Shown: positions 5,705-20,480, counted from the first letter of the stretch. The stretch is 64,000 nt of DNA from an uncultured Alphaproteobacteria bacterium (GCA_934229625.1 CAKQDU010000003.1:64426-128425); one strand, 5' to 3'. Notes: generated from the sequence alone by a model not told the origin. Made by a program: numbers and translations.

Positions 5705-6874
5705 ATGAAAAGATGGATACAACATACACCTCAAGAAATAAAAAAACAACTTACTGAAAAAGGTGATTTGTTTACAACCCTTTCAAGTTATGCCTATAGC
5801 GCAACTCAAAAACATGTAGATCCAGAAAGTGAGATGAATCCGGCAAATTATGCTTCTTTTATGATTGCAAAATTGCTTAAAGATTATCGAAATCCTGAAA
5901 ATAAAGCCAAAATGGAAGAAGCCGGTATTGATGATAAATTTATTAAAACTCTAATCCAAGAAGTTGGCTACTCTAATCTGGATAATAGCAACAATCCTAT
6001 TGCAACACACGGCGTTATTGCTGCGGCACTCAAGAATCAGATACACGAAGTCGAAAATTATTTTGAAAAAGAAAAAATACGTGAAAATAACTTAAAAACT
6101 GCAGCTACCATAAGTGAAGAACTTGGTAAAACAGCAGAAAAACGATGGACATGTGGGTATGCAAAACCGCTGGTAGAAATTGAAGAAATAGCAAATAAAT
6201 ATGGTATCATGCCACGTGAAATAGGCGAACATATTGATTGTGCCGTGTCTGGAAAGGATTTTAAACCTTATCAAAATAAACCTGATGAGCTTAATAAAGC
6301 GTTTAAGGAATTATATTCTTGTGGTAAAGATCAATTGAATGCTATGGATTATTTTAACCGTGAACGTAAGTTTAACGCCACATTCAAAGAAACAATGGAT
6401 AATTATAATTCCGGACTTGATAGTTATAGGGATGAGCTTCTACAAAAATTAAAACACTTAGGCATCTCTCCTGATGAAGCAAAGATGGCTCTCTACGCGC
6501 AAAAAGACAAAGAAAGAGAAGCCATGATGGCTGCCGAAAAACAAAAAGAAATTAATAGAAAAGCAGTTATTGAAGCCAAAGAAAAACAGGCACAAGCCGA
6601 GAAAAAAGCTGAACAAGAGCGTTCGGCCGCCGTACAAATTGGCGATTTAATAGTAATATACGACCCTAATAATAAAAATGAAGAAGGACGTTATAATAAT
6701 TTTCGCTATTATGCTCGCAATGACGACGGCTCTTTACATTCTGCGTCATTGGACGAAGCTTGCAAACTTGCCAAAACACCAATTCCTTATAAACACGAGG
6801 CAATTAAAACCGGAGAAAAAATTGACAACGTTGCTCTCTTAAAATCACAAATCAATAAAGGTGCAGAACGTTAA
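5705..6874 (+). CDS. Hypothetical protein, K/E-rich (coiled-coil-like), 389 aa
   Basis: Long ORF with no recognisable catalytic motif. Charged repetitive stretch KEREAMMAAEKQKEINRKAVIEAKEKQAQAEKKAEQER. Confidence 0.45.
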   Translation: MKRWIQHTPQEIKKQLTEKGDLFTTLSSYAYSATQKHVDPESEMNPANYASFMIAKLLKDYRNPENKAKMEEAGIDDKFIKTLIQEVGYSNLDNSNNPIATHGVIAAALKNQIHEVENYFEKEKIRENNLKTAATISEELGKTAEKRWTCGYAKPLVEIEEIANKYGIMPREIGEHIDCAVSGKDFKPYQNKPDELNKAFKELYSCGKDQLNAMDYFNRERKFNATFKETMDNYNSGLDSYRDELLQKLKHLGISPDEAKMALYAQKDKEREAMMAAEKQKEINRKAVIEAKEKQAQAEKKAEQERSAAVQIGDLIVIYDPNNKNEEGRYNNFRYYARNDDGSLHSASLDEACKLAKTPIPYKHEAIKTGEKIDNVALLKSQINKGAER

Positions 6875-7386: not shown

Positions 7387-7475
7387 AGTTGATAAATTTG
7401 TGACGAATCTTTTTTGTTATAAACATCAATTTTATGCTTTTATTTTACAATGACGTAATTTTTTAACAAAAGTAT

Positions 7476-7504
7476 TTGACAAGCAAAAAAAATTGTCTTA
7501 TTAC
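7476..7504 (+). promoter_or_regulatory. Sigma70-like promoter for tRNA-Gln (TTGACA-17-TATTAC)
   Basis: ttgaca agcaaaaaaaattgtct tattac, ending 23 nt before the tRNA 5' end. Confidence 0.5.
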
Positions 7505-7527
7505 TAGCGTGTGTTTTTGAAGACGAT

Positions 7528-7601
7528 TGCTTCATCGTCTAATGGTAGGACAGCGGATTCTGACTCCGTCAATCTTGGTTCGAGTCCAGGTGAAGCAGCC
7601 A
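7528..7601 (+). tRNA. tRNA-Gln (anticodon CUG)
   Basis: Cloverleaf folded by hand. The U1:A72-type acceptor (tgcttca / tgaagca) matches the E. coli tRNA-Gln pattern. Anticodon loop ttCTGac, T-loop cttgg-ttcgagt-ccagg, discriminator G, encoded CCA. Confidence 0.85.
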
Positions 7602-7650
7602 ATTTGATAATATCTCCCTGATTTTTGGGAGATTTTTTTTGTAATTTTTC
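7585..7650 (+). repeat. attL: direct repeat covering the tRNA-Gln 3' end plus downstream sequence
   Basis: A 66-bp segment (the last 17 nt of tRNA-Gln plus its terminator region) recurs at 18646..18710. The only differences are 2 mismatches/indels in the T-runs. Confidence 0.85.
7613..7640 (+). terminator. Rho-independent terminator after tRNA-Gln
   Basis: tctccc-tgattttt-gggaga followed by T8. Confidence 0.65.
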
Positions 7651-7773
7651 TAAAAAACAGCAAAAAAACGGCTGATACACTATAGTGATACACCAAAGGA
7701 ATTTTCAGCACTTCCCCCTGTTTTATGTTTTTATGAATCACCGCAATACTTATCCACAGAAAAGGATTGCATT

Positions 7774-9543
7774 TTGAACGGTCATTCGGGATTATATTTA
7801 AGAGGCTCAAACTATTATTTCAGAGGCAAGATTCCAACATATCTGCATTATCTTGCTCCTACAAAATATATCTTACATTCTCTAAAAACTAACAATTACC
7901 GGAAAGCAGTGATTGAATGTCGCAAAGAAAGTTATAAACTGGGCATAGAAATAGAACTTTTAGGGAATATTGATATGCTTATCAAAAGTGGACGAATTGT
8001 TTTAGATAAGTCGGACATAGACAATATAATCATTTATAAACTGAATCAACTTACCGAAGATTTAGAAAACAATTATGATGATATTATGCTAAAACAATAT
8101 GATAAGAATAAAACGCTCGTTTTCAAAGATATTAAAGATGATGAACTAACGCAAAATAAAAAAGACGCGCAAAATATTGAAGGTGTCTTTAAAGAATATA
8201 TTACAGACTTAAAGGACAGACCTGGTACCCACCATAATGTTATTAAGCAAATCAATAAGATACTTAAAGACAATATATCTCTGATGAACGATATTTCCGA
8301 AATAAAAAGTACGCAAAAAGAATTATATAGTGCTATGCGTGGTGTCGACAAATACATCAATGATATGTTTAACTGTATGGAAAATGATGCCAATCAAAAC
8401 ACTTGGACACATCCGCGCGTAAAAGATTGTATTGCCATTATGAATGCGCAAAAAAGTGAACAATGCAAAAATAACGCCTTTAAAACACCTTGGAAAGATG
8501 TGTTTGCCGAATATTTACTGACAAAAAAGCGGCAATCAATCAAACAATTAAATGAGAAAAGCCTGAAGAAAGAAGAAACTTGCATTGATACTTGTTTTAA
8601 ACTTGTAAAGAAAAGTTATGTTGAAGACTTGAATTACAAAGATTGCAAAAAGGTTTCCAGAGACATTTTTAATCTTCCGAAAAAATGGGAAGAAAAGAGC
8701 CTCAAAAAAGGCATATCATTAGAGGAGATGTTAGCACAAGAAAATGAAGACCACATTTCATATTCCACCGCCAAAGGATACTTAATAATATTCCGAAACT
8801 TTTTAATTTATTGCAAGAAAAATCACTATATTGATACAGTATTATATGAAGAAGTTGATATTCCAAAGCCTAAAGATAAGCATTGCAGAGCCGGATTTAG
8901 CGAAAATGAACTAATTAAAATATTTAACCCTAAAACATATCCGAAAAGGATTAGTATTGATAGGTTCCATAATTTCTACATTCCGTTAATAGCCCTTTAT
9001 TCCGGTATGAGATTGGGAGAAATCTGTCAACTCTATGTTTCTGATGTGGTAAAATACGGCAAAAATCTATACTATTTTAATATTACAGATGAAAGAAAAG
9101 ACCAACATTTAAAAACAAAGCAATCAAAACGAATCGTTCCAGTACATCCGATGCTTTTGAGTATGGGATTTTTAGATTTAATAAAACAAGCCAAAGAAAA
9201 GCAAGAAGAACGGATATTCTATAAACTGAAATACTCTGTCAAGAATCACTATGTCAATGCTGTCAGCAACTGGTTTCAATATTATAGCAAGAAGATTGGA
9301 ATTGATGACCCTGACAAAGTATTTCACAGTTTTAGGCATACGGCAAAACAACATTTAAGGGATTGTGGCGTTCCGCAGGAATATCAAAATGCCCTTTGCG
9401 GGTGGAAAGGTACCGACACCGGAGAAACCTCATACGGTGGAAATGTCCCGTTTGAAAAACTATATGAGTATATTTCTATGCTACAATATCCATTTTTAGA
9501 AAAGACACTAAAGAAATTAAAGAAACAGAATAAAATCAAATAA
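7774..9543 (+). CDS. int: Tyrosine recombinase / phage-type integrase
   Basis: N-terminal arm-binding-type motif GLYLRGSNYYFRGKIP. C-terminal catalytic region with R...HSFRHT...Y (RHRY tetrad). Confidence 0.85.
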   Translation: MNGHSGLYLRGSNYYFRGKIPTYLHYLAPTKYILHSLKTNNYRKAVIECRKESYKLGIEIELLGNIDMLIKSGRIVLDKSDIDNIIIYKLNQLTEDLENNYDDIMLKQYDKNKTLVFKDIKDDELTQNKKDAQNIEGVFKEYITDLKDRPGTHHNVIKQINKILKDNISLMNDISEIKSTQKELYSAMRGVDKYINDMFNCMENDANQNTWTHPRVKDCIAIMNAQKSEQCKNNAFKTPWKDVFAEYLLTKKRQSIKQLNEKSLKKEETCIDTCFKLVKKSYVEDLNYKDCKKVSRDIFNLPKKWEEKSLKKGISLEEMLAQENEDHISYSTAKGYLIIFRNFLIYCKKNHYIDTVLYEEVDIPKPKDKHCRAGFSENELIKIFNPKTYPKRISIDRFHNFYIPLIALYSGMRLGEICQLYVSDVVKYGKNLYYFNITDERKDQHLKTKQSKRIVPVHPMLLSMGFLDLIKQAKEKQEERIFYKLKYSVKNHYVNAVSNWFQYYSKKIGIDDPDKVFHSFRHTAKQHLRDCGVPQEYQNALCGWKGTDTGETSYGGNVPFEKLYEYISMLQYPFLEKTLKKLKKQNKIK

Positions 9544-9598
9544 TAATTTATTGATTGTTCAGGATTAAAATTCTTTAAGGAAGAAATTTTCCCAAATA

Positions 9599-11923
9599 TC
9601 ATTTTTTAATTTCAAAAGAATATATGGCATTTTGTTCATATATAATATCTAAAAAAGATGACATTGTTATAGATATTTCTTTATTTGTTGTATATTCAGG
9701 ATTAAATAAATCATCAAATTTTTTATCACCCTTTAACTCTATTTCTTTTACTTTCATATCTTTTACACCTGTTTTGCATAAACTAACTTTACTTTTATCA
9801 ATAAATAAAATTGTATTTTTTTTAGCAAAATTTTTATGAAATAAATAATCATCTTTACTAACGTTTATTGTTCCATTTCCAATTTTTATTTTCTCCGCTC
9901 CTATCGGTGCATCATTCATAATTATTCGTTCTATTGGAAAGGCTTTTAATAAAATAGCCTTAGCAGCACTAAAGTTGGTTATAATACAATAATCCGATAA
10001 ATTTTGTGCTGTAATTTCATCAACTGATGAAATTTTTTTTGATATACTTCGTAATTTTTGAAAAAGTTGCCCATACATTTTTTCTTCTAACATACGATAT
10101 ATTTGTTGTTCAAAATCATCATATACTATCAAACGCCCTTTTTCTTTAGTTATTGTAATATTTCCTAAAGCCATTTTGAGAGCAATTGCAGGTATTTCTT
10201 TTTTAACTCCAAATATCCTATTTATAACATTGTCTGGCACTAAAGCATCATACAAATCTTGTTTCAACTCTTTAATTTCAGATATTTGTTTTTGAGATAA
10301 TTTTGAGTTCAAAATATTTTTTCTTCTCATATCCATTTTTTGATGTAATAAGATGATTTGGCCTATTATATAATTTTTATAACTATCATTTATTTGAAAT
10401 GTACTTACAAGTTCTTCATTAGAAAAGAAATCATCCAGAATTTTTTTTATTTTTTCTATATTATTTAAATAGTTAAAAAATAACTCTTCATTAGTTAAAT
10501 GATTAACAAAATCTTGAGAACTATTAGAATATCTACTTATTTCAGTTTGTATATATTGTTGTCTAAAATCATTAACATTCAATTGTTTTAATTTATCCAT
10601 TTTATCTTTTGCATTACACAAAAAAATGAATAGTGTATAAAATATATATCTTTCCGATTGTTGATTTTTACTAAATACCTGATTCTGAGAAAATGAAGAA
10701 TCTTTGCATAAATAACAATTAAATATTTCATCAATATAACGAGGCATTTGCGGGAAACTATATTCGGAATGATTTTCTTTAGGTGTTTCATAATACATAT
10801 AATCGTATGCTTCCTTATACTTACCTTTATATATTAAATATGAAATTATTTGAGTATTCAACTTCAACATCTGTATTTTATCTATTTCGTCAGAATGTAT
10901 ATAATTCTTTATAATATCTTGCCACAATGTTAGTAAACTAAACGGAAAATTATCGTCAATTAGTACTGTAATTACTTGAAAAACTATCACATTTGGGTGC
11001 ATAAGTTTTCTATTTACATTATCTATAATATTAGGAAAAACATTTTTGTAATATTTATTCAGAATATAATAAAAATCAAATAATGATATTATATCATCAT
11101 GTGAAATATTACATTTATCTAATTTATACATAAATTTTTGTACACAACTTTTTATAATTGCGTCTTCAACATAAAATGAATTTGTATGCTTCCACTTTAA
11201 TAACGCGTTATCTAATAATTCATATTGCATAGTAAAAATAATATTTGCAATTTCTTGTTTAGATAAATTAACCCCACGTTGAAAAATATAAGTCATAATT
11301 TCCAATGGTCTAAAGAGATATTCATTTTCTCTATTTAAGCATACAAAATTATGCTCAAATTTATGCTCATTCCAACTAATATTGTTTTTAAATATATCGT
11401 ATATATATGTAGTAGCGGTCGTAAACAAACTTAAATCGTCTTGATATTGTATTGAGTGAATAGCAATCATTTGTAATAATTCTAAATCTTCATTTTTTGC
11501 ATCAGGTGTTAATACAATATTTTTCACTTTGAAGATTTCTTCAGGATTATTGTAATATTGATATAAGATTCTAAAAGAATAATAACTGAAACATATACTA
11601 AATATAGAAAATATAAAGTTTGGTATCAGTATCAATATATAATATTCACTATCCAATAAAGGCAATAATATTATAGAAAATAAATTTATAATTAAAGTAG
11701 ATGTAATAAACTGAAAGTAATAATGTATATAAAATTTTTTATCTAATTTTGTTATAAAAATTTGCGATATATCTTTAAGACTTTTTGTCGTTTCAAATAT
11801 TTTAGGATAAACAAAAGCAACTAACCCAATATTGATAGTTAATAAGGCTGTTAATATAGTTAAAATATCATCTAAAGAAATCACAGATTGATTTTCATAA
11901 AATAGTTGAATTGACATTTGCAA
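9599..11923 (-). CDS. Large hypothetical protein (774 aa): N-terminal multi-pass membrane region plus a large soluble domain
   Basis: Hydrophobic helices in the first ~130 aa (ILTILTALLTINIGLVAFVY..., LIINLFSIILLPLL..., ILILIPNFIFSIFSICF). No Walker or other catalytic motif recognised. Very AT-rich. It lies directly downstream of the MTase-nuclease pair on the same strand. Confidence 0.5.
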   Translation of the reverse strand: MQMSIQLFYENQSVISLDDILTILTALLTINIGLVAFVYPKIFETTKSLKDISQIFITKLDKKFYIHYYFQFITSTLIINLFSIILLPLLDSEYYILILIPNFIFSIFSICFSYYSFRILYQYYNNPEEIFKVKNIVLTPDAKNEDLELLQMIAIHSIQYQDDLSLFTTATTYIYDIFKNNISWNEHKFEHNFVCLNRENEYLFRPLEIMTYIFQRGVNLSKQEIANIIFTMQYELLDNALLKWKHTNSFYVEDAIIKSCVQKFMYKLDKCNISHDDIISLFDFYYILNKYYKNVFPNIIDNVNRKLMHPNVIVFQVITVLIDDNFPFSLLTLWQDIIKNYIHSDEIDKIQMLKLNTQIISYLIYKGKYKEAYDYMYYETPKENHSEYSFPQMPRYIDEIFNCYLCKDSSFSQNQVFSKNQQSERYIFYTLFIFLCNAKDKMDKLKQLNVNDFRQQYIQTEISRYSNSSQDFVNHLTNEELFFNYLNNIEKIKKILDDFFSNEELVSTFQINDSYKNYIIGQIILLHQKMDMRRKNILNSKLSQKQISEIKELKQDLYDALVPDNVINRIFGVKKEIPAIALKMALGNITITKEKGRLIVYDDFEQQIYRMLEEKMYGQLFQKLRSISKKISSVDEITAQNLSDYCIITNFSAAKAILLKAFPIERIIMNDAPIGAEKIKIGNGTINVSKDDYLFHKNFAKKNTILFIDKSKVSLCKTGVKDMKVKEIELKGDKKFDDLFNPEYTTNKEISITMSSFLDIIYEQNAIYSFEIKK

Positions 11924-12026
11924 ACCTGTATTATTATTTAATCCTATTACATAATATAAAAAAACACCACCTATACAAGCAACAGGTAATGTTTTTTAAC
12001 AAATATCTTTTTATTTTACTTAAATT

Positions 12027-13127
12027 CTACACATCACTTTTGCGTCGGTTGCAGTCTCGGCATAACATTTGGCAATTATCTATTGTTGTATGTCCACCTT
12101 TTGCGTACGGCGTAATGTGGTCTGCTTCCATTTCTGAAATATCAAAATGCTTGCCGCACTTTTTACAATTTCCGTTTTGCCTTTCATAGACAGTTCTTTT
12201 TTCACTATCCTTAAATGCTCTAATACTTAAACATTTTTCATCGCCCGACAGCACATATTCATATATACCCTTTTTAGAAGTTATCTCATCAAATTCATCT
12301 TTCATAAGTGTAGAAATCTGTTCTTCAATTTTTTTAGGGTCTAAATCTGCATCTTTATACTTGTTATATAACAGTCCCCACTTTTGACCTTTCATCTCTT
12401 TTCGGTATTTAGTGAAGATTGTTTCTATCCAATTTATTACTGATTGATAATATTCTTTAAGTTCTCTGGCTGTATGCTCTTGTTGGTGTATTCCCATATA
12501 ATCATCAATAGATTTAATGCCGTCTCTTTGCCTTATCCAATCTAAAACAGTTTCCAGATAGTCTTGCCTTATTGGTGTGCCGGTCATATATTTTTCACCA
12601 ATTTTATACGCTATGCAATTAGACTTACTAAAATATTTTTTAGCATCACTTAACCATTCACCGGTAAAGATAGCGTTTCTTAATTCTTGGTCAGTTAATT
12701 CTATTCCGGCAATATTGATTATTTTAAACCAATCCAATTTTTCACTATCCTTTCCCTCGCAAATATAAACCATCAATTCATAGTCCAATATTTTATCTTG
12801 TTCATCATTTTGCAGAGTATAGAAAAATTTACCATCTACAGAGAAATTACCTTCTAAATATTCGCAAATACTTATTGTTCGCTGCTGACCGTCAAGGAGT
12901 TCATAAGTACCATCTTCATTTAGACACCAATACATAACATTTAGAGGGAAACCTTTTTTGACAGTATTGATTACTTCTATCTTATTTTTATCGCCATAAA
13001 TATATTCTCTTTGGTATTTTGGTCTGATATTTAATTTGCCGCTATAACCGACAACCCCTTCTTCATCATTGTTTATATAACCGTCATAAACATCTCTGAT
13101 TTTGATTCTGTGTAATTCAATCTTCAT
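12027..13127 (-). CDS. DUF262 (ParB/GmrSD-like N-terminal domain) plus C-terminal HNH nuclease
   Basis: N-terminal IRPKYQREYIY and LLDGQQRTISI motifs are typical of DUF262. The C-terminal region CKKCGKHFDISEMEADHITPYAKGGHTTIDNCQMLCRDCNRRKSD is a canonical HNH (His-Me) motif. Confidence 0.7.
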   Translation of the reverse strand: MKIELHRIKIRDVYDGYINNDEEGVVGYSGKLNIRPKYQREYIYGDKNKIEVINTVKKGFPLNVMYWCLNEDGTYELLDGQQRTISICEYLEGNFSVDGKFFYTLQNDEQDKILDYELMVYICEGKDSEKLDWFKIINIAGIELTDQELRNAIFTGEWLSDAKKYFSKSNCIAYKIGEKYMTGTPIRQDYLETVLDWIRQRDGIKSIDDYMGIHQQEHTARELKEYYQSVINWIETIFTKYRKEMKGQKWGLLYNKYKDADLDPKKIEEQISTLMKDEFDEITSKKGIYEYVLSGDEKCLSIRAFKDSEKRTVYERQNGNCKKCGKHFDISEMEADHITPYAKGGHTTIDNCQMLCRDCNRRKSDV

Positions 13128-13128
13128 A

Positions 13129-14217
13129 TTATTTTTTCCTTCTAATTAAAACTCTGGCGTAAATGCTTGAATATAATTCCCCTGTTTCTACATCTTTAAA
13201 TGCTGGCGTTTTATCTTTAATTTGATTAAATTTTCTATAAAGAGTACCTTTCGCATTATATGTGAATTTTCCTGTCCCATTTCCATTTTTATCTAATATT
13301 TCCATCTTTTTATTATTAGTAAATTCGCAACTTCCAACTATTCCTAAATCAACAATTTCAAATTGGTCAGGACTATACTTATCTAAAAATGTAATAGGTA
13401 CCCCCATCACTCCATCATAATCCATAGGTATATCACTTGTTTTATCTACATTGATAGCATTATAATTTTCGTAATGAGGATATTCTTCCGGTGTATATTT
13501 TTTATATAAATCTAAATCTTCGTGTCTTTTTGTTGTTTCAATATTTGTATACCATACAACACCTGAAACACGAATCATTCCTTCTTTATGGTCTCCGGCT
13601 GTTGCATAATCTTCATAATATGGATTGATAAAATGTCCTGCACCACCTTTAAAGCCATATCCTAACCATATCTTGTTTTCTTTTATAAGTTTGAATATTT
13701 CCCTATATGTAATAGCATTTTGATGTCCTATAATTAAAAATTTTTTATTATATTTAATCAACTGTTCTACATACTCTCTAAACAATGAAAATGGTGGATT
13801 TGTAATAACAACATCTGCTTCTTTTAATAATTCAATACATTCATCACTTCTAAAATCACCATCACCCTTTAGAGACTTAACGCCAATTTCTTCTATATCA
13901 GGTACCCTGTTGCTATTTTTATCACCATAATATTCCAAATATACCGCTTGTTCGCTGTCATTTTGAGAAAATAAATCCATATTTTTGTTTTTATAACAAG
14001 TAGTAATCAGTTTTTTCAAACCTAAATGTTCAAAAGAATAACTGAAATAATGAAAAAAATTACTAACCCGCGGGTCATCACAATTACATAAAACAGTCTT
14101 GCCTTTTAAAAATGATTTGTAATGTTTCAGTTCATTTTCAATATCACAAAGTTGAGTATAAAACTCATCTTTTTTATTTCTTTTCGCTTGTTTTAAATTG
14201 TCATTTGCCATCTTCAT
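13129..14217 (-). CDS. N6-adenine DNA methyltransferase, EcoRI-methylase family
   Basis: From memory, the N-terminus (KQAKRNKKDEFYTQLCDIENELKHY...CDDPRVSNFF) and the motif IV VVITNPPFSLFREYVEQLIKYNKKFLII match M.EcoRI-type methylases. The stop is 1 nt from the start of the nuclease gene, so the two form an operon. Confidence 0.65.
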   Translation of the reverse strand: MKMANDNLKQAKRNKKDEFYTQLCDIENELKHYKSFLKGKTVLCNCDDPRVSNFFHYFSYSFEHLGLKKLITTCYKNKNMDLFSQNDSEQAVYLEYYGDKNSNRVPDIEEIGVKSLKGDGDFRSDECIELLKEADVVITNPPFSLFREYVEQLIKYNKKFLIIGHQNAITYREIFKLIKENKIWLGYGFKGGAGHFINPYYEDYATAGDHKEGMIRVSGVVWYTNIETTKRHEDLDLYKKYTPEEYPHYENYNAINVDKTSDIPMDYDGVMGVPITFLDKYSPDQFEIVDLGIVGSCEFTNNKKMEILDKNGNGTGKFTYNAKGTLYRKFNQIKDKTPAFKDVETGELYSSIYARVLIRRKK

Positions 14218-14236
14218 AAATGTCCGTTTATGAAGA
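14211..14236. promoter_or_regulatory. 26-bp hix-like palindrome overlapping the MTase start codon
   Basis: TCTTCATAAATG-TC-CGTTTATGAAGA: 11/12 matching half-sites around a 2-bp core. The MTase ATG (14215-14217, minus strand) lies inside it. Confidence 0.4.
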
Positions 14237-14311
14237 CATTCAAATAAGTATTTTTAATATCTTTATTTGAATCTTTGGAACAGCACGGATTTCCTCAGAT
14301 TTATTTTATTC

Positions 14312-14339
14312 TTGCAACTAAATTGCTATGTGTTATTAT
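14312..14339 (+). promoter_or_regulatory. Sigma70-like promoter (TTGCAA-16-TATTAT) inside a segment bracketed by an 11-bp inverted repeat
   Basis: ttgcaa ctaaattgctatgtgt tattat. It lies between the 11-bp inverted repeats at 14220-14230 and 14360-14370, and points toward the recombinase gene at 14425. Confidence 0.35.
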
Positions 14340-14424
14340 GCTAAAAAATTTATATCAACTAAACGGACATCTATTTTATATAGTCTTTTGATAAATACTT
14401 ATGTAATATCAAAGGATTATTAAA

Positions 14425-15021
14425 ATGATTTATTCTTACATTAGAGTCAGTTCAGACCAGCAAAATTGCGCCAATCAAAAATATGAGGTGGAATGTTATG
14501 CCGCTAAAAATAACATAACCATTAATGAGTACATTGAAGAAACAATATCTTCCAGAAAACCGCTTAAAGACAGAAAATTAGGCAAATTATTAAATAAACT
14601 TTCAAAAGGAGATATTGTTATCAGTACCGAAATATCCAGACTTGGGCGAAATATGTTAGAGGTTATGGGAATTTTACAAACTTGTTTAGAAAAAGATTGT
14701 GAGATAATAACCATAAAAGAAAACTATCATCTTGGGGCGGATATTCAGTCCAAAGTTTTGGCGTTTGCATTTTCTCTTGCCGCTGAAATTGAGCGTCAAC
14801 TTATTTCTCAACGCACAAAGGAATGCCTTAAACGCTTAAAAAATGAGGGTAAACATCTTGGCAGACCTTATGGTTTTACATACAAAAAACTAAAAAAGAA
14901 ACACAATAAGATAATTGATTTACTTAATAAAAAAGTATCCAAAGCGGAAATTGCTCGGCTGATGGGGTGTTCGTGGGCAACATTGCATAGATACATTAAA
15001 GAATGCTGTATAATCTCTTAG
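14425..15021 (+). CDS. Serine recombinase (resolvase/invertase family)
   Basis: N-terminal catalytic motif YIRVSSDQQ. Resolvase core ...LGRNMLEVMGIL.... C-terminal HTH (AEIARLMGCSWATLHRYIK). Confidence 0.8.
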   Translation: MIYSYIRVSSDQQNCANQKYEVECYAAKNNITINEYIEETISSRKPLKDRKLGKLLNKLSKGDIVISTEISRLGRNMLEVMGILQTCLEKDCEIITIKENYHLGADIQSKVLAFAFSLAAEIERQLISQRTKECLKRLKNEGKHLGRPYGFTYKKLKKKHNKIIDLLNKKVSKAEIARLMGCSWATLHRYIKECCIIS

Positions 15022-15575
15022 TGTGCTTGTTTATTCAAATATCCATAAACAGTCGGGCGTGTAATGTTAAATTGTCGGGCAATTTGGGCTATCGGTAAAC
15101 CTTGGTCGGCAAGTTTATTCAATTCTGCAACTTGCGCATCTGACAGTTTATTTTTACCGCCTTTGTATTTACCTTTTGCTTTAGCAATAGCCACGCCTTC
15201 TCTTACACGTTGATTGATGAGTTCTCGTTCCAACTGTGCTACCGCGCCAAGCATTGTCATCATCAGTTGTTGGTACGGGTCTTTTTTATCTGGAGAAAAA
15301 GTCAAATTCTCCTTATGAAAAATAACAGTCGCTCCGAGTTTGTTAATTTCTTCCACCAGATTCAACAAATCACGCGTGTTTCGTGCTAATCTATCCATTG
15401 AATGCACATTTACAATGTCGCCTTGTCTTAAATTGCTCATCATTGCCTGCAATTCCGGTCTATCGGTATTCTTACCCGATAATTTGTCTTCATATTCTCT
15501 ATCGCACGCAACGCCGGCTAATTGTCTTTCCGTATTTTGCACAACAGTTGAAACTCTTTTATAATTAAAAATCAT
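15018..15575 (-). CDS. Serine recombinase, Hin/Gin/Pin-like DNA invertase
   Basis: YKRVSTVVQNTERQ catalytic region, DRLARNTRDLLNLV, C-terminal HTH IAQIARQFNITRPTVYGYL. 185 aa. Overall similarity to the Gin/Hin family. Confidence 0.8.
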   Translation of the reverse strand: MIFNYKRVSTVVQNTERQLAGVACDREYEDKLSGKNTDRPELQAMMSNLRQGDIVNVHSMDRLARNTRDLLNLVEEINKLGATVIFHKENLTFSPDKKDPYQQLMMTMLGAVAQLERELINQRVREGVAIAKAKGKYKGGKNKLSDAQVAELNKLADQGLPIAQIARQFNITRPTVYGYLNKQAH

Positions 15576-15790
15576 AGTAAAGTCCTTTTATGTAAAATCA
15601 TCATTTATAATGCTATTTTACATTACTCAAAAAGTGTAAAATTGTCAAGCATTTTAGTTTACATTTTACACTTTTATAAATGTATATTCTGACTACTGTC
15701 TGATTTTCCATTTTTCTAATAATGATTCATTATATTTTAAAAAGAATCGCGTATTATGCTACTAATTAAAAATATCAAAAGGCTTATACA

Positions 15791-16780
15791 ATGGAACAAC
15801 AAGGCGAAATCATTATTTACCAGTCGGCTGACGGCAAAAATAAACTGGATGTAAAATTAGAAAATGAAACTGTTTGGCTTTCTCAATCTCAATTAGTTGA
15901 CTTATACCAAACCAGCAAATCAAACATCAGCGAGCATATAAAAAATATTTTTAATGAGGGTGAACTATCGGCCGATTCAGTTGTTCGGAAATTCCGAACA
16001 ACTGCCGCAGACGGTAAAAATTATTCAACGCAATTTTACAATCTTGATATGATTATTTCCTTAGGGTACCGCATAAAGTCTTCTATTGCCACCCAGTTCC
16101 GCATTTGGGCAACCGAACGCATAAAGGAATATATCATCAAAGGATTTACCATTGATGACGAACGTTTAAAACAAAACGGCGGCGGAAATTATTGGAAAGA
16201 ATTGTTAGACCGCATCAGAGATATCCGCTCCTCTGAAAAAGTTTTATACCGTCAGGTTTTGGATTTATACGCCACAAGTTATGATTATAATGCCAAAGCA
16301 CCGGAAACTATTGAATTTTTTAAAGTTGTCCAAAATAAATTACATTTTGCCGCGCACGGTCATACAGCATCAGAAGTTATATATGAACGTGCAAATGCCG
16401 ATAAGCCTTTTATGGGATTAACCACATTTTCCGGCGACCTGCCAACTAAAGCCGAAGCCAAAATTGCTAAAAATTATTTAAGCGAAAAAGAATTAAAGGT
16501 GCTGAACAATCTTGTTTCCGGATATTTTGACTTTGCAGAAATCTATGCCGTTCGTCACGAACATTTATATATGAAAGATTATCTTAAACAGTTAGACAAC
16601 ATTTTATCGGCAACCGGAGAAAACGTCTTACAAGGCGCAGGTAAAATCAGTCATCAAAAAGCAATGGAAAAAGTTGAGGCTGAATATAAAAAATATCAGG
16701 AAAAGACCTTAACTCCGATAGAACAAGCATATTTGGAAAACTTGAAAAGTTTGGAAAAAAAGATAGAAGACAAAAAATAA
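15791..16780 (+). CDS. rhuM: RhuM-family protein (virulence-associated / Fic-neighbourhood DNA-binding protein)
   Basis: N-terminal IIYQSADGKNKLDVKLENETVWLSQSQLVDLYQTSKSNISEHIKNIF...YNLDMIISLGYRIKSSIATQFRIWATE. Characteristic RhuM-family block. Confidence 0.7.
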   Translation: MEQQGEIIIYQSADGKNKLDVKLENETVWLSQSQLVDLYQTSKSNISEHIKNIFNEGELSADSVVRKFRTTAADGKNYSTQFYNLDMIISLGYRIKSSIATQFRIWATERIKEYIIKGFTIDDERLKQNGGGNYWKELLDRIRDIRSSEKVLYRQVLDLYATSYDYNAKAPETIEFFKVVQNKLHFAAHGHTASEVIYERANADKPFMGLTTFSGDLPTKAEAKIAKNYLSEKELKVLNNLVSGYFDFAEIYAVRHEHLYMKDYLKQLDNILSATGENVLQGAGKISHQKAMEKVEAEYKKYQEKTLTPIEQAYLENLKSLEKKIEDKK

Positions 16781-16825
16781 ACGCTTTTTTTTGATTTTCA
16801 GAGAATGTTTATCCATTACCAAAAA

Positions 16826-16875
16826 TCTAAAAAGCGGGGTTTGCGGAAAATAAAAGTAGGAAATAACAAAAAACA
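16826..16875. repeat. 50-bp direct repeat, copy 1 (copy 2 at 18748..18797)
   Basis: atctaaaaagcggggtttgcggaaaataaaagtaggaaataacaaaa compared with atctaaaaagcggtgttggcgtaaaataaaagtaggaaataacaaaa. Each copy is followed by a different hairpin. Confidence 0.6.
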
Positions 16876-16940
16876 GCACATTTCTGCGCTGTTTCATACA
16901 ACATTTGTAAAAGACTTCAATTTGTTTTTCACATAAGTAT

Positions 16941-17504
16941 TTATCTTGCCGGATATAAAATTGCACCGCGGTCAATTAAATAATTCGCAATATCCAACTC
17001 CATTTTTGCCAAAGCCGTGGTTAGCGGTGTTTGTGCCTGAACATTTAGCCAATTTATGTCCGCTCCCTCATTTATCAAATATGCCACGCCATTCAATTTT
17101 TGTTCTTTCGTCATATTATCATTTAATATCAACAAAATAAGCGCATTATTTCCAAACACATCAGTACGATATACAGAGGCTCCGTTATTCACTAAAAACT
17201 CCGGAATTTCCATATCCGTACACATATAACATGCCATTAAAAATAGTGAAGCGTGGCGGGCATTTATGGAATCATCTATGTTAAAATCTGGATTTTCTTC
17301 CAACATATTTTTGATTTCATCCATATCGTTAATGTTAAAACACTCGTCAACTTCATCATTATAAGGACGATAAACCGGAACTGTCTTCAAGCGTTTTTCT
17401 AAAGCGTCTAATTTTTTACGAATAGCCGGAAGTTGTTCCACCGGCACATATTTAATATAAGTATTATCAAAATTTGCGTTCATATACTTCCCCTTTGCTT
17501 TCAA
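16941..17504 (-). CDS. Hypothetical protein with C-terminal ankyrin repeats
   Basis: ...NGASVYRTDVFGNNALILLI...VAYLINEGADINWLNVQAQTPLTTALAKMELDIANYLIDRGA: 2-3 ankyrin repeats. Confidence 0.55.
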   Translation of the reverse strand: MKAKGKYMNANFDNTYIKYVPVEQLPAIRKKLDALEKRLKTVPVYRPYNDEVDECFNINDMDEIKNMLEENPDFNIDDSINARHASLFLMACYMCTDMEIPEFLVNNGASVYRTDVFGNNALILLILNDNMTKEQKLNGVAYLINEGADINWLNVQAQTPLTTALAKMELDIANYLIDRGAILYPAR

Positions 17505-17632
17505 TTATATTTATTGGCAAAACCAACACCAGCCGCAAAATATAAAAAAGACACCGAATAAAATCCGATGCCTTATATAAAAGATAAAAGTTCTACGTCG
17601 AAAGCATATCAACGCATAACTATTTATCCTCT

Positions 17633-18199
17633 TTATACCGCCTTTTTGAATATTTTACTGTTTATATATGATGGTGTTTCAATCCTCTTTTTATTGAAAT
17701 GCATGTCTTTTTCACAATCGTTGGAATTTATATAATCCAAGCATTTATCAATATCATATATGGCTTCAAATTTGTGAGAGGCTTTCGGATAAATGTCTTT
17801 AAACAGCCTTTGAATAAAGCCTAAAAATATGGATAATTCAGTAATATCTAAACAATTGATGATAAAATGTATATGATTTGATTTACCCTTTTGTTTTTCA
17901 ATAATTCCGGTCCAGTTGAACTGCAAATGTTTTAACTTTATCCATTTGCTACCATATTTCCACCTGTAATATCTTGCTAATATATATTTGAAATCATCTT
18001 CTAACTTAACTTCATCTACACCACAGTTGGGCTGAAGAGTGATAAACCATCGTCCGTTATTTGTTGTCAATGTTTTTGGCTTGTCAACATTCATATCAAT
18101 ATAGGTTGATTTTAATTTTCTCATCATTGATAATGGTTCTTGTGTAATTCTGTTCTGAAAAATATTGTGTATCATTGTTTTACAATCCTCTAATGCCAA
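17633..18199 (-). CDS. HUH-superfamily endonuclease-like protein (rolling-circle Rep / TnpA-like), 188 aa
   Basis: Three motifs in order: WFITLQPN (Rep motif I, FLTLT-like), SNHIHFIIN (HUH motif II), and SYINSKIFKK (Y-x3-K motif III). It is the last gene inside the island, just before attR. Confidence 0.45.
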   Translation of the reverse strand: MALEDCKTMIHNIFQNRITQEPLSMMRKLKSTYIDMNVDKPKTLTTNNGRWFITLQPNCGVDEVKLEDDFKYILARYYRWKYGSKWIKLKHLQFNWTGIIEKQKGKSNHIHFIINCLDITELSIFLGFIQRLFKDIYPKASHKFEAIYDIDKCLDYINSNDCEKDMHFNKKRIETPSYINSKIFKKAV

Positions 18200-18645
18200 T
18201 AATAAAATAAGAAAATTTAGCCAAAGTTTTTAATTCACCATTATTTTTTAAGGGTGTCATATTTTCTCTATTTTTGAGGTCTTTGCTAATACAAAGTAGG
18301 CATCTGCCATTCAGCGTATTATGCTTAAAGCATCTCTAACATCGGGAAGATAATGTTTAAAGATGCCATCTTCCCTTTGATATTTATTATGCCATATTAC
18401 ACTTTTTTATTGCAAAAATAAAATTAGTATTAGTGGTTAAAAATAATATTGACAAATAGAAATTTTTAAATACGGCAATACATCTGAAAAAAACATCAAT
18501 TCATAAAAATCAAAAAAAGCCTTGACGACTTATTTATCCTATGTTATTTGATTAAAAGTACTTATACACTTATTGACAATGTATTGTTAAGATTTAATAA
18601 AAATATAAAGCAATATCAGAGTGATGTTTAATTTTTAACTGGTCT

Positions 18646-18710
18646 TCCAGGTGAAGCAGCCAATTTGATAATATCTCCCTGATTTTTTGGAGATTTTTTT
18701 GTAATTTTTC
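18646..18710 (+). repeat. attR: copy of the tRNA-Gln 3' end plus terminator region
   Basis: tccaggtgaagcagccaatttgataatatctccctgatttttt ggagattttttt gtaatttttc. See attL. Confidence 0.85.
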
Positions 18711-18747
18711 CAAATATTAAAATTGAGTTAGAAATAAATTACCAAGA

Positions 18748-18797
18748 ATCTAAAAAGCGGTGTTGGCGTAAAATAAAAGTAGGAAATAACAAAAGGA
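18748..18797. repeat. 50-bp direct repeat, copy 2
   Basis: See the feature at 16826..16875. This copy is immediately followed by the hairpin aaaggacc-tgaaaataata-ggtccttt. Confidence 0.6.
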
Positions 18798-18818: not shown

Positions 18819-19094
18819 AAAATTATGTTGTTTACGTACCAATTCTGTAACAGCCTCACGCCATAAGTCAACCGCAAAATCAAAGCGTTATTATGATCGA
18901 AAGTGTGTAAAAAAAACGACCGTTTAAAATGGACAGTTTTTCGGCTGTTTTTTGCAGTATATCATAATTTATGAAAAATGCAATAACATTATAATTTTAC
19001 GCTATTTTTTATTGATTTTCAGATGTTTTTCCGCCTCCGATTCCGTTGTGTAAAAATAACGGTCGTTTTTTTTACACAATTGAGGAGGAATAAG
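18819..19094 (+). repeat. Conserved ~260-bp upstream cassette, copy 1 (copy 2 at 36148..36426)
   Basis: Module Y (aaattatgttgtttac...taacagcctcacgccataagtcaaccgcaaaatcaaag) plus module Z, ending in the Shine-Dalgarno site and ATG of the downstream gene. About 85% identical to copy 2 apart from a diverged central part. Confidence 0.8.
18904..19078. promoter_or_regulatory. Perfect 21-bp inverted repeats (TGTGTAAAAAAAACGACCGTT / AACGGTCGTTTTTTTTACACA) flanking a 133-bp segment
   Basis: Left arm at 18904-18924, right arm at 19058-19078. The identical arms recur at 36235-36255 / 36390-36410 around a 134-bp partially diverged spacer. Confidence 0.7.
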
Positions 19095-20480
19095 ATGTTT
19101 AACTATTTGAAAAAATATAACATATTCTGTAGTTTAAAGCTTTTTGTAGTTTTGTATGCAGTCAGTATGTTTTCTATTTCTGCGGAAGCCAAAATTTGTT
19201 TTTTACCGGACAGCAGCTGCGGCACCGGTAAAATAAGTTCCGTAAAGCCAAACCCGTCGCAATGTATTTATAGCAGCATGGCTCAAGCCCAAAATGGCAT
19301 ATCAAGCTGCGAAAAAGCGTATAAGCAAAATTTCTGCTTTTACAGACGCTGCAAAACCGAAGACAATAATATATTTGCAGACGAAGCAAGCTGCAAAAAG
19401 AAAGCCAAAGCTGATAATTTAATCTGCGTAAGCTGCGGCGGCTGCTATAAAGTTACGCCGAAAACATGCCCGAGTGGGTACACGGCAGGCTTAACCACCT
19501 GTGCGGAAAAAGCCGGCTATACTGCAAGTTATTCAAGCAACGGCTATGCCGGATATAGTGTCTGCGGCAAGTGCAAATATACCATAAAACCGTGTGAAAG
19601 CGGCTATACGGTAGGTTTGGCCAGCTGTCCGGAAAAACAAGGTTATACTTCGAACTATTCCCGAAACGGAGTTTCCGGCGAGCAGGTTTGCGGCAAGTGC
19701 GACTACACGGCAAAAGGCTGCGCCAGCGGTTATACGGCTGGTTTGACAAGCTGCAGCGAACGGCGCGGCTATAATGCAAGTTATGCCAGCAATGGGTATG
19801 CCGGGGAGTTGGCTTGCGGCAAGTGCGACTACACGGCAAAAGGCTGCGCCGGCGGTTATACAGCAGGTCTGACAAGCTGCAGCGAACGGCGCGGATATAA
19901 TGCAAGCTATGCCAGCAACGGGTATTCCGGCGAGAAAATTTGCGGAAAATGCGACTACACGGCAAGAACTTGTCCAGATGGATATTCTACAAAATATAGC
20001 AGCGTCAGCGCCTGCGGAGAAACAGGAAGCAACGGCTGGAATTATGCTAGCAACGGCTATTCTGGGGAAGCTGTGTGCGGAAAATGTACAAAGAAACCAT
20101 GTCCTAGTGGGTATTATTATTGGTTATATAGTGAAAATATTAAAGATATGTTTAAAAGACCTTGCAATACAAGTACAAGATGTCCGGCAGATAGCGGATA
20201 TTATGAATATTATGAATCTCCAGGGTTTGGTGTCTATTATAATATGTGTAAAAATTATGGCTTTTGGGGGAGAGTTGCCGGTCGTAGCGGAGATGGTATT
20301 TGTTTTAAGACGGGCGATCGTCCTTGTCCTAGTGGTACAATAGGAGGTGGTGCTTCTAAGGCAAGTGAATATTGTGAAAAGACTTATGGTAAAAAATACA
20401 GATATAGATATAGAGAGGTAAAAAATCCAGATGGTAGTGATATGTGTACAGGTTATGAGCATTGTTGGAAATGTTATTGA
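19095..20480 (+). CDS. Secreted cysteine-rich tandem-repeat protein (461 aa from the ATG at 19095)
   Basis: Strong Shine-Dalgarno site gaggagga before ATG 19095 (the ORF-track start at 19023 is a non-ATG start upstream). Signal peptide MFNYLKKYNIFCSLKLFVVLYAVSMFSISAEA. At least 6 copies of a ~40-aa unit: CGKCDYTAKGCASGYTAGLTSCSERRGYNASYASNGYAGE. Confidence 0.75.
   Translation: MFNYLKKYNIFCSLKLFVVLYAVSMFSISAEAKICFLPDSSCGTGKISSVKPNPSQCIYSSMAQAQNGISSCEKAYKQNFCFYRRCKTEDNNIFADEASCKKKAKADNLICVSCGGCYKVTPKTCPSGYTAGLTTCAEKAGYTASYSSNGYAGYSVCGKCKYTIKPCESGYTVGLASCPEKQGYTSNYSRNGVSGEQVCGKCDYTAKGCASGYTAGLTSCSERRGYNASYASNGYAGELACGKCDYTAKGCAGGYTAGLTSCSERRGYNASYASNGYSGEKICGKCDYTARTCPDGYSTKYSSVSACGETGSNGWNYASNGYSGEAVCGKCTKKPCPSGYYYWLYSENIKDMFKRPCNTSTRCPADSGYYEYYESPGFGVYYNMCKNYGFWGRVAGRSGDGICFKTGDRPCPSGTIGGGASKASEYCEKTYGKKYRYRYREVKNPDGSDMCTGYEHCWKCY
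19690..19930. repeat. Two near-identical tandem 120-bp DNA repeats inside the Cys-rich gene
   Basis: The run gcggcaagtgcgactacacggcaaaaggctgcgcc...gcaagttatgccagcaatgggtatgccgg is repeated with about 6 substitutions. Confidence 0.8.

Follow-up and report, generated by a model that had tools for sequence, protein, structure and literature searches.

An EcoRI-family methylase paired with a DUF262-HNH nuclease: a probable Type II restriction-modification module on a tRNA-Gln island of an uncultured alphaproteobacterium

Enzymes of the GmrSD type, which carry an N-terminal DUF262 domain, act alone on modified DNA (PMC4619093, PMC12707154). HNH nucleases are frequent fusion partners of ParB-like or COG1479 domains, which have been linked to restriction-modification (R-M) systems (PMC3632139), and COG1479 is described as widely transferred and uncharacterised (PMC6287321). 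Type II restriction endonucleases (REases) that genome annotation names 'DUF262 domain-containing protein' are listed in REBASE (PMC13091528), and a preprint on the REBASE gold-standard methylases mentions an EcoRI_methylase subgroup. The subject of this analysis is a gene pair that joins these two families, found in a 64,000-nt stretch of DNA from an uncultured Alphaproteobacteria bacterium (GCA_934229625.1, CAKQDU010000003.1:64426-128425), which is referred to as the window and whose positions are counted from its first letter. The pair is most probably an orthodox two-gene Type II R-M module, in which restriction is blocked by methylation, and is carried as cargo of an 11-kb integrative island at a tRNA-Gln gene.

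The methylase-nuclease pair

Both genes lie on the minus strand. The first cistron (13129-14217) encodes a predicted N6-adenine DNA methyltransferase (MTase) of the EcoRI_methylase family (362 amino acids, aa), the protective (M) gene of the pair. Its TAA stop codon is followed by a single base and then by the ATG of the second gene (12027-13127), which specifies a putative restriction endonuclease (R) of 366 aa. A preliminary description of the locus had given the coordinates of the pair, the 1-nt spacing and several motifs; the open reading frames (ORFs) lie exactly at those coordinates with that spacing, and the motifs were found in the translations. It had also recognised an EcoRI-type methylase with an NPPF motif IV, and the protein matches the full Pfam EcoRI_methylase profile PF13651 (E=1.6e-135), with TNPPFS at aa 138-143, as well as the PADLOC MTase_II profile PDLC03297 (E=1.1e-114). 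The sequence blocks DEFYT, CDDP, GDGDF, TNPPFSLFR (which holds the NPPF motif IV) and GVPITF are kept across 68 members of the family, in whose proteins a conserved core (about 290 aa) is followed by a hypervariable insert at around aa 291-350 (approximately 13168-13347 of the window) and then by a conserved C-terminal tail. No relative turned up when the methylase sequence was searched against the PDB.

The nuclease has three parts, an N-terminal DUF262/ParB-Srx domain (approximately aa 1-135), a helical middle domain (approximately aa 146-300) and a C-terminal zinc-ribbon HNH domain (approximately aa 305-366). The N-terminal domain carries NIRPKYQREYIY at aa 33-44 and LDGQQRT at aa 78-84, and the C-terminus is an HNH finger of the form CxxC...DH...N...CxxCN. 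Profile matches to GmrSD_N (DUF262; E=7.5e-18) and HNH (E=5e-15) confirm the reading of the preliminary description that this is a DUF262 protein with a C-terminal HNH nuclease and not an EcoRI-like PD-(D/E)xK enzyme. The HNH part belongs to PF01844/PF14279, with a Cys4 zinc ribbon, and no match to DUF1524 was found in the protein at E<=0.01. When 28 diverse homologues were aligned, the RPxxQRE and DGQQRT motifs were invariant, and the HNH residues D336, H337, N351 and N360, along with the four Cys zinc ligands, were invariant or nearly so. An AlphaFold2 (AF2) model of the nuclease (mean predicted local distance difference test score, pLDDT, 85.7) shows the same ParB/Srx-like N-domain, helical middle domain and HNH finger.

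Among PADLOC profiles, the nuclease matches the REase_II profile PDLC03418 from end to end (aa 1-365 on positions 1-371 of 372; E=2.3e-137, 456 bits), and this profile was matched by all of the sampled homologues (28/28). We take the PADLOC R-M models, PDLC03418 included, to be derived from REBASE reference enzymes. Weaker and partial PADLOC matches were obtained to NsnA (87 bits), PD-T4-2_A, the Cas9 HNH domain and mREase_IV. The nucleases sampled, which are 51-71% identical to that of the window, come from bacterial phyla and archaea, and from plasmids and viral contigs. The family is large: the matches listed in a database search already number more than 8000 clusters, and a full scan gave 469 clusters at 50% identity (E<=1e-30).

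The association of the two genes was examined in 160 related loci, 80 from species-representative genomes and 80 from viral contigs. The genome loci cover Bacillota, Bacteroidota, Pseudomonadota, Actinomycetota, the candidate phyla radiation (CPR/Patescibacteria), Spirochaetota, Chloroflexota and archaea. Four loci end at a contig edge 30-470 nt from the nuclease start, and the other 156 are informative. In every one of these (156/156), an EcoRI-family methylase accompanies the nuclease. Of the 80 genome loci, 76 have it upstream of the nuclease gene and in the same orientation; it directly adjoins the nuclease gene in 75 of these and lies about 3.7 kb off in the remaining one (L071). In viral contigs it is within about 1.5 kb in 80/80 and immediately upstream in 72. 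Among 61 complete pairs, most have a gap between the two genes of -11, -4 or -1 to +24 nt. The more two methylases have diverged, the more their partner nucleases tend to have diverged (Mantel r=0.44), with none of 2000 permutations giving a value as high. Features by which a Type II R-M system is recognised are present here: a separate methyltransferase gene with intact catalytic motifs, an adjacent, separate endonuclease gene with an intact nuclease active site, homology of the nuclease to recognised Type II REases by way of the PDLC03418 profile, and conservation of M and R as a unit.

The pair is found on plasmids of many genera and phyla, where it is annotated as 'adenine-specific methyltransferase EcoRI family protein' and 'DUF262 domain-containing protein'. 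Some of these plasmids are small and hold little beyond the pair and a replication gene; a 7.5-kb Ligilactobacillus plasmid (L002), for example, consists of a MerR regulator, the pair and rep. The pair is one of the more promiscuous R-M cassettes. One 688-aa polypeptide (P0293) contains the EcoRI_methylase, GmrSD_N and HNH domains together, and may be a natural M-R fusion or else result from a frameshift or an error of gene calling in an overlapping pair. On a plasmid of Chryseobacterium taklimakanense (NZ_CP034172.1; hits H5 and H33), the nuclease is intact and the adjoining methylase matches in two pieces and is missing from the gene table; this methylase may be a pseudogene or the result of a sequencing error.

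Judged by its sequence, the pair is a further member of a widespread Type II R-M family that is already catalogued, and is not a novel arrangement. The preliminary description had called it unusual and non-canonical, a view that does not hold given the end-to-end match to PDLC03418, the same match in 28/28 homologues, the 469 clusters and the constant presence of the methylase at informative loci; the PADLOC search essentially places the pair in an R-M subtype that has already been named. For annotation, this shows that where an 'EcoRI family methyltransferase' has a 'DUF262 domain-containing protein' beside it, the two should be taken together as a whole Type II R-M module; neither a Type IV enzyme nor a new defence system is the proper label.

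The same data bear on the possibility that the nuclease is a modification-dependent Type IV enzyme like GmrSD, directed against foreign modified DNA, such as that with hydroxymethylcytosine or glucosyl-hydroxymethylcytosine, and that the neighbouring adenine methylase is unrelated and has a separate role. The N-terminal domain is Pfam GmrSD_N, the closest solved fold is the Type IV enzyme BrxU, followed by SspE, and there are weak PADLOC mREase_IV matches through the HNH part. However, an unrelated neighbour would be expected to decouple from the nuclease, while the methylase is present at all informative loci, usually overlapping the nuclease gene or a few nt from it, and diverges together with it; with linkage that is obligate and co-diverging, a modification-dependent enzyme sitting by chance beside an unrelated methylase is not expected. 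The C-terminal domain is a PF01844 HNH and not the DUF1524 that defines GmrSD, the protein is, at 366 aa, shorter than BrxU and SspE (about 560-580 aa), and the Type II REase profile is the best match by about 370 bits. We consider the Type IV explanation quite improbable.

The two genes appear to form a single transcription unit. Directly after the nuclease stop codon, a terminator scan detected a terminator-like hairpin with a T-run (11959-11997, minus strand), for which the RNA fold is -17.6 kcal/mol (z=-3.4 relative to shuffled sequences), and this hairpin probably marks the end of the M-R unit. The promoter is presumed to lie within the intergenic region upstream of the methylase (14218-14424, minus strand for the pair), which is shared with a divergent resolvase gene. 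A consensus promoter scan of this region gave no convincing minus-strand site, and it has no ORF of >=60 aa wholly inside it and no ORF for a C-protein. Directly upstream of the methylase are two serine recombinase (resolvase/invertase) genes (14425-15021, plus strand, and 15018-15575, minus strand), which are convergent, overlap by 4 nt, and have products only about 25% identical to each other; they may serve to mobilise the cassette or to invert DNA.

Predicted mechanism and recognition site

In an orthodox Type II module, the methylase would methylate the N6 position of adenine at a specific site on host DNA, and the M then R order with a 1-nt spacer would allow it to be made before, or along with, the nuclease. 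The nuclease would cut the same site when unmethylated, using the zinc-ribbon HNH (beta-beta-alpha-metal) active site, and cleavage would presumably be blocked by the cognate N6-methyladenine (m6A). Sequence specificity is probably supplied by the helical middle domain. By analogy with GmrSD, BrxU and SspE, the ParB/Srx-like pocket with the DGQQR motif may bind a nucleotide or DNA and gate the nuclease.

An alternative use of the same parts would follow the logic of SspE, with the DUF262 domain reading host m6A as a sign that 'self' is present and licensing the HNH domain to nick or cleave invader DNA that lacks the mark, so that methylation activates the nuclease and does not simply block it. 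The obligate pairing of M and R and the strict conservation of the DGQQR and QRE nucleotide-binding motifs are both in keeping with such a switch, and in SspE, as two papers report, the same domain couples recognition of the host modification to NTPase activity and to switching of the nickase (PMC9646914, PMC12065111). The PADLOC profiles, on the other hand, file the family among Type II REases, and the simple Type II reading already explains why the genes are paired, in what order they stand and why plasmids carry them. Activation by methylation is considered improbable.

The orthodox Type II reading must also be set against several observations that count against it. Sequence searches of the PDB, both with the single nuclease and with a family profile, matched HNH modules only, and the searchable literature yielded no biochemical study or other paper characterising the nuclease family, and no prototype name or site. 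The family methylases, which carry the variable insert, range from 303 to 559 aa, compared with 359-384 aa for their partner nucleases (61 complete pairs). DUF262 is otherwise known from the modification-sensing GmrSD, BrxU and SspE, and the domain may have a methylation-sensing role here also. The invariant DGQQR and QRE motifs would allow for a nucleotide requirement, which is atypical for Type II enzymes, and a need of the ParB-like pocket for nucleoside triphosphate (NTP), if real, would break the strict Type II definition (Mg2+ only). Lastly, palindrome depletion gave no AATT or GAATTC signal, with AATT at an observed/expected ratio (O/E) of 0.90-0.97 and GAATTC not exceptional.

The family may consist of methylation-sensitive enzymes of a mechanistically undescribed kind, in which a ParB/Srx nucleotide-binding switch gates an HNH nuclease that cuts unmethylated sites. 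Such an NTP-dependent 'inverse GmrSD' may be Type II by gene organisation only. The role of a strictly conserved ParB/Srx nucleotide-binding motif in a nuclease that is held off by a methylase is what makes the pair of interest to enzymology.

EcoRI recognises GAATTC. From membership of the methylase family, it might be guessed, and weakly so, that the site of the window pair has a similar AATT-like core. HpyAXII (GTAC) was considered as a prototype and ruled out, as R.HpyAXII is described as one of the PabI/HALFPIPE glycosylases.

The most depleted palindromes in the host flanks are GATC and GGCC, a depletion that, without a control set of genomes free of the system, is not attributable to the pair. 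Across the window there are 9 GATC sites compared with 166 expected (O/E 0.05), at 5819, 6329, 18895, 20316, 48273, 49595, 49831, 51240 and 51657, and there are none within the 11-kb island; GGCC, CTAG, TCGA and CATG are also depleted in the window (O/E 0.36-0.52). The scarcity of GATC suggests long-term pressure by GATC-specific restriction in the host lineage, to which no link with the pair is established.

The tRNA-Gln island and neighbouring genes

The preliminary description had placed the pair on an island at a tRNA-Gln gene, and the tRNA gene (7528-7601), an integrase gene and a 69-nt direct repeat were all located. The first copy of the repeat (attL, 7585-7653, plus strand) consists of the 3' end of tRNA-Gln and a further 52 nt, and the second (attR) is at 18646-18714 (plus strand); the two copies (family D2) are 90% identical and bound an island of about 11.06 kb. 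The tyrosine integrase (7774-9543, plus strand; 589 aa) has matches to Phage_integrase (E=1.1e-10) and DUF6538 (E=1.2e-08), and is part of the context, outside the R-M mechanism. The cargo comprises the integrase, a gene for a protein of 772 aa, the R-M pair, the two serine recombinases, a RhuM/PDC-S05 protein, an ankyrin protein and a 188-aa protein. When aligned with the related locus L098 (2256-13427), the island (7441-18663) is 96.5% identical, whereas the chromosomal flanks are only 68-74% identical. Identity so much higher in the island than in its flanks indicates recent horizontal transfer between distinct lineages, and the R-M module is defence cargo of this recently transferred element.

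The gene downstream of the pair (9599-11923, minus strand) encodes 774 aa if translated from a TTG codon, or 772 aa if the ATG at 11917 is taken as the start, as gene callers do. The product has three hydrophobic segments near its N-terminus (approximately residues 15-40, 67-90 and 91-113), and was not assigned to any family in Pfam, PADLOC, NCBIfam or PHROGs. Comparing its AF2 model (pLDDT 74) with known folds brought no informative match. The protein family is rare, with 11 clusters, and its homologues (at L089, L090, L091 and L092) occur after an Eco57I-type MTase and ResIII helicase, beside an Mrr Type IV enzyme, and at a locus with an integrase fragment and without the pair.

This protein was correctly described earlier as membrane-anchored and encoded on the same strand as the pair, but the accompanying suggestion that it may be a third component does not stand. 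A three-gene system in which the 774-aa protein is required would fit the position of its gene, about 105 nt downstream of the pair and on the same strand, and its constant company with the pair in the island lineage of the window. A homologue is, however, present at none of the related M-R loci (0/160), the terminator-like hairpin separates its gene from that of the nuclease, and the 11 homologous clusters are found in other contexts, including beside unrelated restriction systems. It also diverges independently of the island, with 88.8% identity between island copies compared with 98-100% for the other island proteins. The lack of co-occurrence, the hairpin and the other contexts argue that the 774-aa protein is not part of the R-M pair, and a three-gene system is highly improbable. 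Because the protein recurs beside restriction genes (the window pair, the Eco57I-type MTase with ResIII, and Mrr), it could be an independent, stand-alone defence gene. That it is a new defence gene of this kind, and that the nuclease is an NTP-dependent 'inverse GmrSD', is a possible but rather unlikely combination when the two proposals are taken jointly.

Another candidate defence gene on the island (15791-16780, plus strand) encodes a RhuM-family protein that matches PADLOC PDC-S05 over its full length (E=1.6e-160). Just after it is one copy of a 57-nt direct repeat (16815-16871), the second copy of which (93% identity) is in the chromosomal flank just outside attR (18738-18794), an arrangement that may reflect a composite or tandem origin of the segment that carries the ankyrin and 188-aa proteins. 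Also just outside the island is a gene (19023-20480, plus strand) for a 485-aa, Cys-rich protein made up of a 126-nt (42-aa) unit repeated about five times, in which the motif SNGY(A/S)GE..CGKC recurs. FadL-like, MepM-like and LapB-like genes point to a Gram-negative host.

Comparison with known systems

The EcoRI R-M system shares its Pfam methylase family with the window pair. The window methylase shares about 52% identity with plasmid M.EcoRI over aa 4-299, and about 52-59% with EcoRI-paired methylases over the conserved core. The EcoRI nuclease, in contrast, has the unrelated PD-(D/E)XK fold, whereas that of the window combines ParB-Srx/DUF262 and HNH domains, and the gene order in EcoRI loci is R then M (E. 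coli and Leuconostoc plasmids; L093 and L095), the reverse of that in the window. In a neighbour-joining tree, the EcoRI-paired methylases form a clade apart from those paired with DUF262 nucleases. Taken together, the EcoRI and DUF262-HNH loci indicate that EcoRI-family methylases partner at least two unrelated nucleases. Family members without an adjoining nuclease are found on conjugative plasmids of Vibrio harveyi (L094) and Campylobacter coli (L096), beside toxin-antitoxin genes, and are possibly orphan or anti-restriction methylases.

The Type IV enzymes GmrSD and BrxU have the N-terminal DUF262 (GmrS) domain in common with the window nuclease, but their C-terminal domain is DUF1524 (GmrD), where the window nuclease, which is shorter by about 200 residues, has the zinc-ribbon HNH. 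GmrSD is a stand-alone enzyme, whereas the window nuclease belongs to a family that is encoded with a methylase at every informative locus. SspE is the DUF262-DUF1524 effector of SspABCD, and differs from the window nuclease in nuclease subfamily and in protein size; the modification in that system is a phosphorothioate made by a four-gene pathway, compared with the m6A that is predicted here from one methylase. NsnA of Menshen and PD-T4-2_A share the DUF262 region (PADLOC E=3.2e-25 and 3.5e-12, respectively), in partial matches that fall far below that to REase_II. No PADLOC match to NsnB or NsnC was found among the 774-aa, RhuM, ankyrin and 188-aa proteins, a scan from which the integrase and the two resolvases were left out. 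With the PDLC03418/PDLC03297 family, finally, the pair shares the same two-gene architecture, and at the level of sequence it does not differ from that family.

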